Positions 3,710-48,372 of a stretch of DNA of 64,000 nt are shown here, piece after piece. The DNA is from a virus. Both the position numbers and the translations under genes were made by a program. The DNA lies in the IMG/VR virus record IMGVR_UViG_3300034072_000578, positions 1 through 64,000 of that record; one strand, given 5' to 3'. The notes beneath the pieces were generated by a model. It made no database searches. It had not been told where the DNA came from and was given only the letters and a program-made list of their open reading frames with translations. Within the stretch, counting starts at the first letter, position 1; the number at the start of each line of letters is the position of its first letter.

Positions 3710-6700
3710 ACCAAACTTGCCAATGTCTCGAATAACTCATTTAGAGGTTCTTCTAGTTCCTTGTTATGGAACAGCATACCCGGCGAGAAGCCTAGGATAA
3801 TGTTACAGTCCAATTCCGAACTGTAATGAACCTGACCGGCATTATCCGTTGCGCTACCTTTAAGGTCTGGAACGAACATGCGATTTATATTGGAGCCTAA
3901 ACAAATGATCGCTGGCGGCTTAAGGATTTCGATTTCCTGTTTAAGGATTTTGAAACCCCCTTCTAAGGTGGCATTGTCGAATAACTTTTCCTTAGCTCTC
4001 TTTGGACGTTTCACTAGGGAAGTCCAATAACCGTCTGCCTTGTTAAGGTCCGCCCTATATAAAGCCCGTGCGATGGAAGTAAAGGCTTTCGACTCCGTTA
4101 ACTTACCAGCCTTAGCTTCGGATGCACTTGGACAATCTAATACCACCATGAATTTAGGCGTCTTACCTAATAGCGGCATTACAAAGCTTGGGTCTTCCTC
4201 TTTCAGCTTTAGTAGCAGCGTTCCTAGGCTATTCTTACCCGCTCGCTCTAGATCGATTTTACGGTCAATCTGGACGAATCCTAGTGGTAAGCTAGGTAGG
4301 TAGTCATTAATAGCTTTTGAGCGCTCTACGGGGTCCATAGCGGCTGATTCAGGGTCGATTTCATCCATGGCCCCTACAGCCTTCAATGCACCTACCACAC
4401 GACTGTTACAAAGCCTCTTAGGGACTCTGTCCTGTAGATTCTCTACAGAAGTAAACGGTCCTCCAGCGTTTCGCTCATCCATAATAACGGTGGCCGCCGC
4501 TTGCACATATTTGATTTTAGATAGCGGTGCCACAATGCGCGATCCACTAGCAGGAACGAACTTGTCAGTGCTATGATTGATACTAGGAGGATCAACATTA
4601 ATACCTGCCTTATTAGCTTCCGTAATGATTGAACGGACTTTCTTATCATCTACGTAAGTTAATGATGCAGCGTAAAACTCTACAGGATAGTAGGTCTTAA
4701 GATACATGCAGATATAGCTTAGTAGTGAGTATTCTACCGAGTGAGACTTATTGAAAGCGTAGAACGCGAACTTACTAATCTGCTCATAAAGCGTATTAGC
4801 GGTGTAAGCATCGATACCGTTAGTTTTAAACGCACCTTCAATGAACTTGTCCTTTTCTTTCTTCATTGCTTCTGGGTCTTTTTTACCCATGATCTTACGT
4901 AGGTTGTCGGCTTCTGGTAGCGTGTAGCCTGCGAAGGCCACTGATACCGCCATAATTTGCTCCTGATAGCAAATTACGTTGAAGGTCGGCTCTACGATGG
5001 TCGCAATTGAGGGGTGGAAGGCTTCGTGAAGGTCGCCATTCTTGCCATCAATATACGCCTGCACTAGGCCAGCCTCGATAGGGCCGGGTCGGTTTAGAGC
5101 GTTAGCAGCTACTAGGTCATCGAATGTGATTTCGCCACCTTTAGCAAGCCCCTTTAGGAGCTTCTTAACCGATCCACCTTCGAACTGGAAAACACCACCA
5201 GTGTTACCTAGGGCGAACTGGTCTAGAGTCCTGCGATCATCCAGCGGAATCTTAGCAAAATCGATGTCGATAGAATGCCTATCGCGAACATACTTGACGC
5301 ATAGGTCCATAATGTCGAGAGTAGTAAGCCCAAGGATATCAAGTTTAATAAGCCCCTGTTTTTCGCAAATCTTCTTATCCCAATTGATAATGCGGGATTG
5401 ATCCGCACCACGTATCTCTACCACCGCATCCTGATTAAGTGGACGCGATGAAACGATCACACCAGCAGCGTGAGTAGAGAAGTTACGTAGCTTCTTCTCT
5501 AGCTTGGTAGCCTTGTCCCAATGATCGGGGTAAGCCTTAGCGAAAGCCCCAATATCAATAACTTCTTTAGCAGCCTCTTCTAGAGTGACTGAAAAGCCGA
5601 AGTTCTTCGGAACAAGCTTGGAACAGGTATATTCCTCAGCAGGCAAACCAAGGATACGGCACGTTGAGCGAAGCGCTGACGCCGCCTGTAGGGAAGCGTA
5701 GTTAATGATACCTGCAACGTTGTCTTTCCCGTATCGGTCGTATAGGTGTTCAATAATCTCGCCTCTACGCGAGGTTTGAAAGTCCAGATCAATATCCGGC
5801 AAATCCAAGCGGGTCGGATTGATAAATCTTTCAAAAAGAAGTCCGAATCTAACGGGATCAACATCGGTAATTCCTAAACAAAATGCGATTAAAGAACCGC
5901 CCACCGAACCACGGCCCGGTCCTACTTTGATGGCTTGGCCCTTACACCAGTCGATTAGCTCATGCACTAGCAGGAAGTAATCGCTAAAGCCTAGGTCGCC
6001 TAGAACCTTAAACTCATGCTTAAGCCGATCAGCGTAGATGCTGGTTAGCTCTTCTCTGGTTGGCTTGTAGCCATATAGCTCTTCCTGTAGCCGCTTCTTG
6101 AAGCCTTCAATGGTTAGCTTCTTTAGCGTCGCTAGTGGATCGGCACTTAGCTGCGGTAGTAGAGGGTCTTGCTTCTTCCACTGGTAGAACTCAGCGGGAT
6201 TCAGGGATAGCTTATGGAACGATAATTCTTTTCCATATCGATCATTAAGGCGATCCAGCATAGCAATAGTATCGTTACTAACGTCATGATAGTAATATTC
6301 CTCCGTAAACGGATTAAGGAAGTTGAACTCCACATTCTTATGGATCGAGAAGTGAATTGGGAAAATGCTAGCCTCTTCCTTCGTGTAGATCGAAGGGGTA
6401 TATACTAGGCATTCTAGACCATTCTTTTCCGCGAACTCTAGACCATCCTTATTAAGACGATCCCAACGGGCAGTCTTAACCGGGCAAATGTCTACGAACC
6501 ACTTAGTTCCGAAGTGGTCATGTGTTCTCTCGTAGAGCCATTGATGCTTCTTATAAGTGAAGATGCTATTGAAGTCGCCAGTAGAAACGATAATATCGTC
6601 TCCAGCTTCTTCGCATAAGCTAATGAACGAACTCATGTCTAGACGCGGTTCCATATAAAAATATGGACGCTCAAATGACTTCGAAAGGTAACGGTAAATG

Positions 6701-14878: not shown

Positions 14879-15218
14879 TAAAGAACTCTTTTAAAAGCGG
14901 TCCTACTGGTTGGTCTTTATTTTCTTTTACCAGCGTATCTACCTTATCTATTTTAGATTGATATTCTTTTTTAATTATAACTCGTTCTTCATTACCGAGT
15001 TTAGTAACTTGGTCTACTACCTCTGCTCTTCTATCATTTTCTTTAATGGTATCATTAGCAGCGTTAAGGGTAGTCGTTAGTTCTATCTTATCCGCTTGTA
15101 AGCTATCAACTTGCTTATTTAAATTCCAGACATAAAAAGAAAAAGCTCCTAAGGCTACCGCGATGATAGCCCATAGAGCAATTTTTCCTTTAATGGTTGC
15201 AAAGCTAAGCAAACCCAT
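14871..15218 (-). CDS. i-spanin (Rz-like)
   Basis: N-terminal TM segment followed by coiled coil. Confidence 0.78.
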   Translation of the reverse strand: MGLLSFATIKGKIALWAIIAVALGAFSFYVWNLNKQVDSLQADKIELTTTLNAANDTIKENDRRAEVVDQVTKLGNEERVIIKKEYQSKIDKVDTLVKENKDQPVGPLLKEFFNE

Positions 15219-26561: not shown

Positions 26562-29500
26562 TATTTCATTCCTTTCATGCTGTCTCTTAATGGACCCGGC
26601 TTAGACATGTTCTTTAGGATCACATCGATAATCATCTTTTCACCATCGAAGCGCGGTTGTGATGACGTTGCGTCCATCTGAGTGCCTGACTGGTTAATGA
26701 TGTTTACGGTTGTTTCTGGAGCTTGCTTGCTGCCAGACGATCCCATTGCTTTCATCTGTTCGGGAGTTAGGACGGTTTCACCCTTCTCCGCGATGATTGG
26801 GACTTCGTTAGGCTTTAGACCTACCATGCCCCCTGTGTGGTATCTTTCGGCGAAAGCGAAGATAGCAGGGTCTACCGTCGTTCTTCCCGGTGAACCCGAA
26901 CCAACCGTCCCTCCCCTATGGAACGTTGGGGTGCTGTTGAAAGCGGCGATTGGAGCTAGCCCATCGGCGGCGAAGTTATTCGAACCGCTGTAACCTAGGC
27001 CAATTGCGCTCAAAATTGCTTTCGCGATCAATGCGCGGATAATGATCTTTGTGATATCGATTAGAAGCGACTTTACGAAATCACCGAACGCTAACTTACC
27101 GCGAGCTAAACCGTCAATGAAGCTATCCATTGAGCTAGTTAGAGTGCTTCCTAACTGCCCCTTTAGATCAGCGGCGGATTGTGCCCAGCTTCCGAACATG
27201 CTTTGAGCGATGTTATTCTTTTTCGCTAGAGCTTTTAGGTAGTTGTAATACTGGTCGGCAATCTTCCTACCCTCCGGACCATAAAGGTTCTGCGTTTCGT
27301 CAATTAGACCCTGTATACGGGCCACTTCACGTTGGTAGTTAGCTTCTCTTTGCTGGTCTTCCGTTAGAAGAGCATCATTGATTTCAATAGTGCTTTCTTG
27401 CGCCTTCTTAGCCTCTAGAGCCATTAGTTCTAGTCGGCGATCATGGGCAGCTTTATTGATTTCTTCCTGTGTCTTGGTGACGATGCCTTGGTTGGTAGAC
27501 TTTAGGTTTTCGCTATATTGCTGGCGCAACTTAGCAATGTATCTATCAACCTGATTAGATACGTTAGAATAGCCAACCTCTAGGGAACCTAGAGCATCTT
27601 GTGCCTGTAGATTCTGATCGTTAACCGCAGTTTGTAGACGCTCTAGATTCTGCTGTGCCTTAGCTAGAGCAGTGATTTCGTCCTTATGCTTCTTAACGTC
27701 TTCCTTTAGCGAAGGAATCATGTTCTTATATTTTAGGGTTTCGGCGTTTAGAGTCGATTGAACCTTGATAGCCGCGACATAGGCACGAACTTCCGCTTCG
27801 ATTTCCTCGCGGTTATCGTTGAAGTTGCCGATGGCGTCGTTTTCAGGCGTAGTCGCTAACTCTGCGTTAAGCTCCTTGACCTTCATCATGAAGTTTACTA
27901 GCTGGTTTCTAGAAGAGTCTAAGCTGCCTAGCTTGTCCTTGGTATTTGTATTAACCGCAGCAACTTGCTTTTCTACTCCCTTGGTTAAGTCTACCGAATT
28001 AACCATGATGGTAGCTTGCTCTACTAGGTTAGCACTATCCTGTAGCTCCTTCGCATACTTTTGGGTTTCGCCAGAATAAAAGTTTAGATTATCTGTAGCT
28101 TTCTCATACTCTGTCTTTTGGCCTAGGACGTAGCGCTTAAATAGATTGATACCTCCCCAACCCGGATCAAGCATCCCGCCATTTTCTTTTCTTTCGGCAT
28201 CTTCTTTCTTTTTAGCGTCGTTTAGGTCCATTTGAGCGCCAACCATTCTGGCTCTAGCGTTAGCTAGAGCAGCCTTGGCGTTCTTCATTAGCTCTACGGT
28301 ATGGTTTTTAATTGTGTTAAGATCGCGAACACGCTCCGCACGGTTTTCGGCGGTTGCGGTTCTAACCTTATCAAATGCGTCCTCTAGAGCGTTCTGAGCG
28401 TTCTTTAGGTTCTTGCTAGCCATTTCATGCTGGATGCTGGCGTCAATGTCACGCTGAGTAGCTTCTTTCTTTCTGGTTAGGAAATAAATTAGACCACCGA
28501 TTGCCGCACCGACTAGAACAACTTCCGCAGCTACGGCAGCTAGAGCCGCAAGGCTTATAGCTCCAGCACGGTTAAAGATGCCCATCGCTGTAGCGGCGGC
28601 AGTGAAAGCTTCGCCAAGGATTATAGTTGCTCTAGCGGCTACTGTAGCGGGTGCGGATAGAGTCGCAATAATCATTTTGACTTGAGTTAGTGGGGTTAGG
28701 AACTTGATAATAGTTCCTGCGCCACCTAGGAACACGCTTCCTAAGTTTCTGATAATGCTAGTCGCTGCGTTGAAGGCGAAGAAGCCAGCAGCTACCTTTA
28801 GAAGAAGCGCAATCTCTTCTCTGTATTCGTATACGAACTTAATGGCGTTAGAGAAAGCAATAGCGACGGTTCCTAGACCTTCGGTTACTTCTCTCATAAA
28901 CTGATCGCCCGAAGCGCTGTTTAGGAATTCAGTTAGCTCCGAAACCTCTTTCTTAATCACATTGAAGAAGCTGTTTGAGCCGCCGTCACTTGTGACGCGA
29001 AGGATCATCTTTTGCCATGCGTTCTGCATACGAACCATTAGACCGTCCCACGTAGCCATCATGTTCTCTGCCCCGCCCTTATACTTGATGGACCATAGCT
29101 CCATTAGCTTGGGAACAGCATCGGCAGAAAGGACTAGACCTTTTCTCATTTTAGCGTCTAGCTCTGGGATAGTCATATCTAAAGCTTCCGCCATGTCCTT
29201 CATGGCGTTAGGGATAGCGTCACCCAACTGCTGTCTTAGTTCTTCGGCTGTAACCTTACCCTTTGAAAGCATCTGCGATAGAGCAATGCCAGCGCGGTTC
29301 ATTTCGTCGGTAGAACCACCGAAGAACGCAACTGTGTCTACTAGAGCTTGCATCGTCCCTTGGGTAGGATCGATACCGGAAGCTTTTAGTTTTACGAATG
29401 ATTTTGTTAGGGCTTCGATCTTGAATGGAGCGTTGTCAGCTAGATTCCAAATGTATCTGCTGTCCGACTTACCAATTACTGCGTTCTCCATTTCGCTAGC

Positions 29501-45555: not shown

Positions 45556-46110
45556 ATGGACAGATCAAAATTCTATTCTACGGTAAGAGCTAAACTAGGC
45601 TCTCTTACACAATCACAAATCAATGGCTTTGAGACAGTGCTAGATGCGCTAGAGGGTCAACCTCTTTCGCACAGAGCGTATTCGCTCGCAACTGCTTGGC
45701 ATGAAACCAATAAAACTATGCTCCCTGTTGTCGAAGCCTATTGGCTTTCGGAAGCATGGCGTAAGAAGAACTTAAGATACTATCCTTGGCATGGTCGCGG
45801 TTATGTTCAATTAACATGGGAATATAACTACAAGAGAGCAGATAAAGAACTTGGTCTAAAAGGGACTTTACTTGCTAATCCTGATCGTGCTATGGAACCT
45901 AAGATTGCTGCTAAGGTTATGCGCCTAGGTATGGATGAGGGATGGTTTACTAACGTAAAGCTATCTGACTGCCTACCAATGAGAGGCGTAGCTACTAGAG
46001 CGCAATACATGAAAGCAAGAACAATCATCAATGGATCGGATAAAGCCGACCTAATTGAAGATTATGCGCAGGTGTTCGAAAGAGCGCTTCGTGATGGAGG
46101 TTTAGTATAA
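45556..46110 (+). CDS. endolysin (GH19/lysozyme-like)
   Basis: AY.LAT.WHET, GRGYVQLTW..NY, NPD.A, AR.IING; SD GAGG. Confidence 0.85.
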   Translation: MDRSKFYSTVRAKLGSLTQSQINGFETVLDALEGQPLSHRAYSLATAWHETNKTMLPVVEAYWLSEAWRKKNLRYYPWHGRGYVQLTWEYNYKRADKELGLKGTLLANPDRAMEPKIAAKVMRLGMDEGWFTNVKLSDCLPMRGVATRAQYMKARTIINGSDKADLIEDYAQVFERALRDGGLV

Positions 46111-46167
46111 TGAGTAGTTGTAGAACAAGAGATATTCCAGACCAGCAATGGGGTGGATAATCTATAT

Positions 46168-46249
46168 CCCCTAGTAACAACGGCGGCTACGAACCGCTAG
46201 TAACGTAACTGGATTGAAAATGCAGGTTCGAATCCTGTCTAGGGGTCCA
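46168..46249 (+). tRNA. D-armless tRNA-Arg(ACG)-like RNA
   Basis: Acceptor CCCCTAG/CTAGGGG, anticodon arm GGCGG-CTACGAA-CCGCT, T arm, TCCA end. Confidence 0.65.
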
Positions 46250-46258
46250 TTTTAATAA

Positions 46259-46333
46259 CGGCGTGTAGCATAACGGTTAGTGCATCCCACTGATAATGGG
46301 CAGATGGAAGTTCGATTCTTCCCTCGCCGACCA
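46259..46333 (+). tRNA. tRNA-Ile(GAT)
   Basis: Loop CTGATAA, CCA. Confidence 0.88.
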
Positions 46334-46393
46334 ATTTAAACTGTCCTCATTTGGCCAGTTATGACGAATTACGGGACTTAATTGTCCATATAT

Positions 46394-46467
46394 GGCCGGT
46401 TACGTTAATAGTAAACTACCCTCCTTACAAGTGGGGATCAGCGGGGCAGAACCGCTACTGGCTACCA
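46394..46467 (+). tRNA. tRNA-Val(TAC) with atypical T and D loops
   Basis: Loop CTTACAA, T loop GGCAGAA, ACCA end. Confidence 0.72.
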
Positions 46468-46473
46468 TTTATT

Positions 46474-46881
46474 ATGACATACAAAATAACAAACTGTAAT
46501 TATTGCAATGTAGAATTCAGATATTGTGATTCGAAAAGAACTGGTAAGTTTTGTTCTAACCAGTGTTTTCAAGATCATAGATATGAATTCGTTACTAGGC
46601 CGAATATTCTTTTAGGTTTGACGGACGCCAAACAATTAAGAGATAGACTTCTAAAAGATACTCCTTATTGCTCAGAGTGTGGAGTAGGAGAGTTTTGGGA
46701 AGGTAAGAAGTTATCATTACAGATCGATCATTTTGATGGCGATAGTGATAACAACGCCCCTTATAACTTAAGAGTTTTGTGTCCTAATTGTCATTCTCAG
46801 ACTGATAATTATGGGATTAAAAATAAAGGATCGTCATCTAGACGTTCTAAATATCTAAAAGAATATAAATCTAATTACTAA
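46474..46881 (+). CDS. HNH endonuclease
   Basis: C..C/FCS..C N-terminus; LQIDH.DGD..NN...NLRVLCPNCHSQT. Confidence 0.9.
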   Translation: MTYKITNCNYCNVEFRYCDSKRTGKFCSNQCFQDHRYEFVTRPNILLGLTDAKQLRDRLLKDTPYCSECGVGEFWEGKKLSLQIDHFDGDSDNNAPYNLRVLCPNCHSQTDNYGIKNKGSSSRRSKYLKEYKSNY

Positions 46882-47330: not shown

Positions 47331-47413
47331 GCTAGTGTCGCATAGTGGTCCATTGCACCGATCTTGTAAGTCGGAATTCCAGATCGTGGGTTCGAATCCC
47401 ACCACTAGCTCCA
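47331..47413 (+). tRNA. tRNA-Thr(TGT) with enlarged variable loop
   Basis: Loop CTTGTAA, 11-nt variable region, CCA. Confidence 0.85.
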
Positions 47414-47880: not shown

Positions 47881-48372
47881 ATGACAGAATTAGATAGGTT
47901 TTTATCTTATATTTTAGTTTCTGAAACAAACTGTTGGGAATGGCAAGGCGCTTTAAGTGAAAAGGGCTATGGCGTTTTCAACATGGGTTCTAGAAAAGAA
48001 GGTAATAAAAGAACTATAAGAGCGCACCGATATTCTTATATGAAATATAAAGGCGAATTGGGCGAACTTCTAGTCTGTCATAAGTGCGACAACAGAAAGT
48101 GTTGCAATCCAGATCATCTTTTTTTAGGAACTGATGAGGATAACATTAGGGATATGTGGGCTAAGGGTAGGCAACCTCCACCTTTAGTCCAACTAGGGTC
48201 AGCAAATAATAATGCCATCTTGGATGATGTTAAAGTCGCTAAAATCAAATCTCTACTAGATACTTTTAACAATAAAGAATTAGGCGCTATGTTTGGCGTC
48301 AAGCATTCAACTATATCCAAAATAAGAACGGGTAGAACTTGGGTGCATGTTCAGGGATCGTCTAATGGGTAG
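47881..48372 (+). CDS. HNH endonuclease
   Basis: CWEWQG, GYG, AHRYSY, VCHKCDNRKCCNPDHLFLGT..DN. Confidence 0.92.
   Translation: MTELDRFLSYILVSETNCWEWQGALSEKGYGVFNMGSRKEGNKRTIRAHRYSYMKYKGELGELLVCHKCDNRKCCNPDHLFLGTDEDNIRDMWAKGRQPPPLVQLGSANNNAILDDVKVAKIKSLLDTFNNKELGAMFGVKHSTISKIRTGRTWVHVQGSSNG

Follow-up and report, generated by a model that had tools for sequence, protein, structure and literature searches.

The order of arms in the cloverleaf is treated as universal for the tRNAs of bacterial translation. In circularly permuted tRNA genes of the Cyanidioschyzon merolae type, the 3' half precedes the 5' half, and a normal cloverleaf is regained on processing. Metazoan mitochondrial tRNA-Ser(AGY) and nematode mitochondrial tRNAs lack the D arm; the D loop is gone, as in most cases is the canonical elbow, and the organellar factors that serve them are adapted (PMC7609411). 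Allo-tRNAs (8/4 or 9/3 tRNAs), which come from metagenomes and phage tRNA clusters and are missed or mis-scored by tRNA finders, have altered acceptor and T stem lengths and keep the arm order of the cloverleaf (Mukai et al., PMC5389517). [quoted passage not shown]

Here we describe a gene at positions 46168–46249 of a 64,000-nucleotide stretch of viral DNA, hereafter the window, which covers the first 64 kb of a phage genome that is complete at 108,412 bp and has terminal repeats (IMGVR_UViG_3300034072_000578). Judged from its sequence and that of its relatives, it is probably a working tRNA-Arg(ACG) belonging to a large phage-borne family with a rewired core. Like the canonical class I tRNA-Arg(ACG) (E. 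coli argV type, RF00005) and the phage's own tRNA-Arg(TCT), it has a 7-bp acceptor stem, a 5-bp T stem with a UUCGAAU loop, a 5-bp anticodon stem, a CUACGAA loop, AACUGGA with G18, G19 and A20, and an encoded CCA. It differs from them in that the D-loop motif, with one strand of the D stem, comes after the anticodon arm on its 3' side, and in that the D-stem equivalent encloses this arm.

The gene also differs from each of the non-standard systems. It shares with D-armless mitochondrial tRNAs the short connector between acceptor and anticodon stems and the missing D hairpin at the usual place (PMC7609411), but the rewired family retains the D-loop motif, GG, A20, U8, A9 and a canonical T loop in a new order, and is set in bacterial translation; conservation of both the GG-bearing D-loop motif and the canonical T loop separates the gene from that class. 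The family resembles allo-tRNAs in being non-standard, phage-associated and poorly detected, yet it keeps the 7/5 stem lengths and alters the strand order of the core (PMC5389517), and the gene at 46168–46249 has 7 bp in the acceptor stem and 5 bp in the T stem rather than 8–9 bp and 3–4 bp. Nor does it have the combination of a variable-arm hairpin and a normal D arm that marks class II tRNAs. Its altered segment order recalls permuted tRNA genes, from which it differs in its normal termini and in a new topology that would persist in the mature RNA. Set against the engineered tRNAs (PMC11551756), the family would be a natural counter-example acting in bacterial cells. A full-text literature search of incomplete coverage returned no published description of this layout, which is an absence of evidence only.

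Anatomy of the gene at 46168–46249

The 82-nt locus comprises, on the + strand, an acceptor stem, a linker, an ACG anticodon arm, a 23-nt segment, a T arm and CCA, and all the tRNA-Arg(ACG) parts that a preliminary description of this DNA had named within 46168–46249 were recovered at their places. The acceptor 5' strand CCCCTAG (46168–46174) pairs at 7/7 positions with the 3' strand CTAGGGG (46239–46245), which is followed by a discriminator T (46246) and the encoded CCA (46247–46249). The 7-nt linker TAACAAC (46175–46181) provides U8, A9, one spacer nucleotide, the 5' strand of a helix termed H2 (CAA, 46178–46180, assigned by a positional register rule) and a 26-like C (46181). The anticodon arm GGCGG/CTACGAA/CCGCT (46182–46198) bears the anticodon ACG at 46189–46191, and C32, U33, A37 and A38 are present in its loop.

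Between the anticodon arm and the T arm lies the 23-nt segment AGTAACG-TAACTGGA-TTGAAAAT (46199–46221), which the preliminary description had put at about 22 nt and in which it had rightly recognized AACTGGA. The segment opens with a return linker AGTA (46199–46202) and the H2 3' strand ACG (46203–46205), continues with the D-loop-equivalent TAACTGGA (46206–46213), read as U13, A14, A15, C16, U17, G18, G19 and A20, and reaches the T stem through the connector TTGAAAAT (46214–46221), whose final T (T46221) is U48, the partner of A15 (A46208). The T arm GCAGG/TTCGAAT/CCTGT (46222–46238) is canonical. All three main stems are intact (acceptor 7/7, anticodon 5/5, T 5/5) and the set comprising U8, A9, A14, A15, G18, G19, A20, U48, the T loop and CCA is complete. 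GGA together with the anticodon ACG is the Arg combination of the family, and in the canonical tRNA-Arg(TCT) of this phage AACTGGA likewise makes up the D loop.

A D hairpin is missing from the stretch that leads from position 9 to the anticodon arm, and just 7 nt separate the acceptor and anticodon stems. The gene had accordingly been said to possess no D arm; this holds for the usual place, but the family has a covarying D-stem equivalent, H2, around the anticodon arm, which had been overlooked because the copy at 46168–46249 has it weakly. Within the 23-nt segment itself, thermodynamic folds give weak, non-conserved self-pairing of 3–5 bp; the conserved partner of the segment sits 5' of the anticodon arm.

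ARAGORN makes no call for the gene, either in the window or in the whole phage genome. The Rfam tRNA model RF00005 aligns to it end to end with 15 D-arm positions deleted and a 20-nt insertion before the T arm, scoring 27.4 bits against a gathering threshold of 29. Thermodynamic folding does not favour the proposed fold (z −1.4), and in a constrained fold H2 is not formed even when the three arms are enforced.

Two repeats are present in this copy and are not general in the family. An 8-nt direct repeat, CTAGTAAC, occurs at 46171–46178 and 46197–46204, taking in the end of the acceptor 5' strand and also the end of the anticodon stem, and GTAAC is tandemly repeated immediately before TGGA (46200–46209). 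The second repeat results from the same G-to-C difference that breaks an H2 pair.

The 5' leader, which separates the tRNA from the stop codon of the ORF upstream (46108–46110), contains an imperfect hairpin at 46130–46163 on the + strand, with no T run after it. It is moderately stable at −13.5 kcal/mol (z −2.5), a value matched by 3 of 200 shuffles. The preliminary description had placed this hairpin at 46129–46168 and suggested that it belongs to the same RNA. The hairpin exists, but nothing ties it to the tRNA: we found no sign that it is a part of the rewired gene, and it falls outside both of the family models (R1 and R2) described below.

A phage-borne family and its helices

The covariance search in phage genomes that had been named as a check showed that the architecture is conserved in more than 100 phage contigs and that its stems covary. 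Phage contigs with the same layout number well over 100, and cultured phages of Rhizobium and Maribacter have it too. An anticodon-anchored pattern on viral contigs (CTACGAA, 25–40 nt, GGTTCGAATCC) matched at least 117 stretches, and among the matches listed at least 79 instances, at least 58 of them unique, share a 7-bp acceptor, a 7–8 nt linker opening with TA, an ACG arm, 20–25 nt containing TAAYTGGA, a T arm and usually CCA. The acceptor and anticodon stem sequences are wholly different from member to member. A second pattern, which used the D-loop motif near the T loop as its anchor and left the anticodon free, returned the anticodons ACG (53), TCT (57), CCT (4) and TCG (4), all arginine, and a third, which required a non-A after GG, returned GAT (13), TAT (8), CAT (7) and one TCT, these counts per anticodon being biased because each pattern prescribed the T loop and one further element, the D-loop motif or the anticodon loop. 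The 28 Ile-type members obtained with the third pattern all have TGGT, and those listed have a discriminator A.

With a first covariance model (R1) we collected 118 distinct members from 100 sources, namely the window and 99 loci, several of which carry 2–4 members. The TA at the start of the linker is invariant (118/118), and the motif UAAYUGG(A/U) lies 3' of the anticodon arm, 5–11 nt ahead of the T stem, in all members but one; CCA is encoded in 72/118. Across the 118-member alignment standard pairs make up 95.1% of cells, compared with 61.8% in shuffles, and pairing falls to 36–45% when partner columns are slid. Both sides change in 19 of the 21 pairs, and covariation is seen in all four helices: all 7 acceptor pairs vary on both sides and all 5 anticodon-stem pairs covary.

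H2 was assigned by a register rule that is blind to pairing, its 5' strand being the three bases before the last linker base and its 3' strand the three bases directly before TAAY. In this register standard pairs occur at the three positions in 117/118, 116/118 and 70/118 members, in total 303 of 354 cells as against 175 ± 8 in shuffles, and in shifted registers at most 64/118 members are paired at any of the three positions. The pair types include C:G, G:C, A:U and U:A, with strand combinations such as CTC/GAG, CGG/CCG, CAC/GTG, CGC/GCG, ACC/GGT, GCC/GGC and CAG/CTG. By its covariation, H2 is a D-stem equivalent that closes around the anticodon arm.

The Levitt-type 15:48 pair (columns 52:78) is A:U in 116 members, G:C in 2 and mismatched in none. 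The base after GG is A in 115/115 members with an Arg anticodon in the 118-member set and U in the 3/3 members of Ile type (GAT, TAT, CAT), all three of which have a discriminator A, as well as in the 28 from the non-A pattern. A20 is a known ArgRS determinant, and this strict link between position 20 and the anticodon supports the view that the displaced loop acts as a D loop. The proposal of a topologically rearranged tRNA-Arg, with a D loop bearing GG and A20 after the anticodon arm, is thereby upheld at the level of the family by its recurrence, the compensatory changes, the position-20 link and the 15:48 switch.

A further covarying helix, H1, is seen in the members whose linker is 8 nt long (n = 31); it is formed by nucleotides 8–11 and the four bases after GGA and is paired in 29, 27, 28 and 28 of the 31 at its successive positions. 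H1 is inconsistent in the 7-nt-linker class, to which the gene at 46168–46249 belongs; that gene can form UAA/UUG. Pairing of the linker with G18, G19 and A20 is possible in 34/118 members, shows zero covariation and was rejected, and no pseudoknot was found, H2 being nested around the anticodon arm.

Against a second covariance model of the family (R2), built without the window sequence, the gene at 46168–46249 scores 82.4 bits (E 2.5e-18), mid-range among ACG members, while the ordinary tRNAs of the window reach at most 35.6 bits. R2 was made from other phages' copies, and the resemblance is far beyond chance. Standard tools recover the family poorly: ARAGORN detects 6 of 117 members, and RF00005 finds some at 34–39 bits and misses others. 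Among cultured phages, Rhizobium phage RHph_I1_18 (MN988519) carries two copies, at 15119–15199 and 87047–87128, and Maribacter phage Panino (PP540027) is a carrier too, at 28067–28143, and partial matches were obtained in Microbacterium phages Zooman and Pumpernickel; in the two cultured-phage records examined, the gene is unannotated or lies beneath a "hypothetical protein." With ARAGORN recognizing so few members and cultured-phage records leaving them unannotated, phage tRNA repertoires would appear to be undercounted. In RHph_I1_18 a rewired tRNA-Arg(ACG) (MN988519 15119–15199, which is 2501–2581 of our locus L339) lies between tRNA-Ile (EVB91_036) and tRNA-Phe (EVB91_034), and the locus tag EVB91_035 is absent from the MN988519 feature table, as if a call had been dropped or marked pseudo.

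The family is restricted to phage tRNA arrays. In a prokaryote genome collection searched with the same pattern, the layout was found in just 3 among the 121 matches listed; these lie in dense tRNA arrays on contigs of metagenome-assembled genomes (MAGs), and one is identical to a viral member. R2 at E ≤ 1e-6 found members in 0 of 150 other genomes sampled from one phylum. One Deltaproteobacteria MAG (G007) has four members on four contigs (C24, C230, C445 and C196), which may come from binned phage sequence or from a tRNA array of the cell; in the locus drawn from it, L287, tRNAs are densely packed, with many Leu and Gln duplicates and one tRNA whose anticodon is TTA.

Phage tRNA set and probable function of this copy

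The region from 44.8 to 50 kb is a dense tRNA array with interspersed small ORFs and HNH endonuclease genes, in which the next gene called by ARAGORN, tRNA-Ile(GAT), starts at 46259, 9 nt downstream of the rewired gene. ARAGORN called 26 tRNAs in the phage, covering 18 amino acids plus Arg(TCT), and 25 of the 26 encode CCA, as does the rewired gene. Within the window neither ARAGORN nor Rfam called a tRNA-Arg, in agreement with the earlier remark that no canonical one is found there; the only canonical tRNA-Arg of the phage, tRNA-Arg(TCT), lies outside the window at 80729–80806 on the minus strand. Neither a CGN reader nor a tRNA-Val is among the ARAGORN calls for the whole genome, and 58.7% of the Arg codons used by the phage are CGT, CGC or CGA. 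We infer from these gene contents that the rewired gene fills the place of the missing CGN reader, so that what looks like a gap would give way to a near-complete tRNA set.

Rewired genes complement the canonical Arg isoacceptors throughout the family. Most members (100/117) lie within 1 kb of another, ordinary tRNA, and a canonical Arg gene of the same anticodon shares the locus for just 8 of 114 rewired Arg anticodons (1 of 51 for ACG; permutation P = 0.002). The commonest arrangement is a rewired ACG with a canonical TCT, which is also that of this phage. One locus (L168, IMGVR_UViG_3300035661_000143) carries each of the four Arg anticodons in rewired form and lacks a canonical Arg gene.

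In the arrangement that we propose, segment 10–21, comprising the 5' strand of the D stem and the D loop, would be relocated behind segment 22–44. The chain would run through 1–9, a strand in place of 22–25, the 26-like base, 27–43, a return linker of 3–8 nt, a strand in place of 10–13, A14–A20, a short connector ending in U48, and finally 49–76. H2 would stack on the anticodon stem to give one continuous arm, much as the D stem does in ordinary tRNAs, and the displaced GG should still be able to reach and dock on the T loop, which would protect G18 and G19. The contacts U8–A14 and A15–U48 are predicted to form, and the RNA of 46168–46249 to fold into an L shape. In canonical tRNAs, position 9 meets 22 through the 9-23-12 base triple, 44 meets 10 through the 26-44 pair and the 45-10-25 triple, and 21 meets 45–48 through 8-14-21, 46-22-13 and 15-48. 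All three new junctions (9–22, 44–10 and 21–45/48) would in this way connect residues that already touch in the L shape, and the family would show that the L shape tolerates re-connection of its strands at three places where canonical segments are already in contact.

We predict that the rewired tRNA is processed by RNase P and charged by the host ArgRS, with A20 and C35 as the recognized bases, and that, once TadA has converted A34 to inosine, it reads the CGU, CGC and CGA codons of the phage. ArgRS reads A20 and C35, and TadA requires just the anticodon arm. Of the sequence determinants expected in a substrate of ArgRS, TadA, EF-Tu and the ribosome, the gene shows A20, C35, G36, the anticodon loop and CCA.

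The feature of this copy that calls for caution is H2. Its three positions are C46178:G46205, which is a standard pair, A46179.C46204 and A46180.A46203, making it the weakest H2 of the 118 and this gene the sole member with one standard H2 pair or fewer. The A.C is unique, that position being standard in 116/118 members; the A.A mismatch is common to 13 members. C46181:G46200 and A46180:U46201 could instead extend the anticodon stem, as in the TATCCAC/AGTAAGG class. With H2 cut to one Watson–Crick pair plus A.C, the copy may work less well than typical members. A search for orthologues with a 40-mer from the 3' half matched only a UCU paralogue in another phage locus (L152), and exact-pattern searches in two metagenome scans found none. 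The UCU paralogue, which is the nearest sequence, is identical in acceptor stem, T arm and D-loop segment and has an intact H2 (CGG/CCG). Of 23 loci obtained by synteny via the upstream lysozyme-like ORF, none has a rewired tRNA. The four closest cultured relatives by helicase similarity (Xanthomonas JGB6, Stenotrophomonas ANB28, Rhizobium RHEph10 and Pseudomonas hairong) are without a member, and BLAST of the 800-bp region against cultured phages gave a tRNA-Ile-like match in XacN1 as its sole result.

The weak H2, the want of any orthologue found that would support maintenance of the sequence, and the lack of the gene in related cultured phages would all be accounted for if the locus were a member of the family that is now an inactive or decaying pseudogene, H2 loss blocking its folding and the phage using the host tRNA-Arg(ACG). 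We regard this as unlikely. The acceptor, anticodon and T stems and all conserved nucleotides are intact, the single unique feature is one A.C pair, the A.A being common to 13 members, and the score against R2 is mid-range for ACG members. Moreover, the gene fills the sole missing Arg codon box in a near-complete tRNA set, and its pairing with a canonical TCT is the commonest arrangement in the family. The intact main stems and conserved nucleotides thus lead us to favour a working gene, with a confidence that is held down by the weakest H2 and by the failure to find an orthologue.

Still less probable, to a degree that makes it hard to credit, is that the family is tRNA-like without decoding, its members serving as decoys or sponges for tRNA-directed host nucleases or modifying enzymes, or as processing or regulatory elements in tRNA arrays. 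Such a role would suit a family restricted to phages, whose altered core might impair function on the ribosome and whose loci contain further unusual RNAs (in the window GOLLD and tRNA mimics, in L168 RNase P RNA). A decoy, however, has no need for an anticodon that complements nearby canonical Arg genes, for a position 20 and a discriminator that switch with the anticodon between Arg and Ile, or for a 7/5 acceptor/T branch with an encoded CCA, and in L168 all four Arg anticodons are rewired with canonical Arg absent from the locus. A chance resemblance, a tRNA fragment or a recombination scar (an att-type remnant) lacking selected structure is, on these comparisons, effectively refuted, for although partial tRNA genes are numerous in prokaryotic annotations according to one report (PMC9897764) and this copy has the 8-nt direct repeat CTAGTAAC, both acceptor strands are full-length, the 82.4 bits (E 2.5e-18) come from a model excluding this copy, and covariation extends through all four helices in 118 distinct sequences.

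The rewiring of the family might be adaptive, a suggestion that we offer as speculative and doubtful. Phages would have evolved and spread working non-cloverleaf Arg and Ile tRNAs that keep what the synthetase, EF-Tu and ribosome need, while dropping the D hairpin that gives tRNA-Arg and tRNA-Ile away to the tRNA-directed nucleases or toxins of host defence, or to tRNA-degrading enzymes encoded by the phage itself; if this were true, the phage's supply of these tRNAs would survive infection. The family would also provide a natural scaffold for studies of D-loop reading by ArgRS and IleRS, and perhaps for the construction of orthogonal tRNAs.

Other unusual RNAs of the same loci

A GOLLD RNA (RF02032, 183.6 bits) is present in the window at 57967–58415, with a tRNA-Lys(CTT) embedded at 58034–58106; of the 26 tRNAs that ARAGORN called in the phage, this one alone does not encode CCA. 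A GOLLD-like RNA scoring 140 bits (cut-off 150) is present in L131, a locus that also carries a rewired tRNA-Arg and has a typical member of the family at 2111–2191. Right after the GOLLD of the window are three tandem tRNA-like elements, at 58480–58552 (33.4 bits), 58558–58651 (24.5 bits) and 58657–58763 (36.9 bits, 107 nt), on all of which ARAGORN is silent. The tRNA array of L168 includes a bacterial class A RNase P RNA (5521–5849 of that locus; Rfam 146.8 bits).

Among the tRNA genes of the window, the ORF at 46351–46881 is a weak match to HNH endonucleases and that at 47881–48372 a clear match to HNH_3. The tRNA-Thr(TGT) at 47331–47413 is 83 nt long; its variable loop, at ∼12 nt, is unusual for a class I tRNA. 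The tRNA at 53498–53574, a clean one at 57.3 bits in Rfam, has 8 nt in its anticodon loop; ARAGORN gives the four bases CCTA as its anticodon, and it may be a suppressor or a quadruplet reader.
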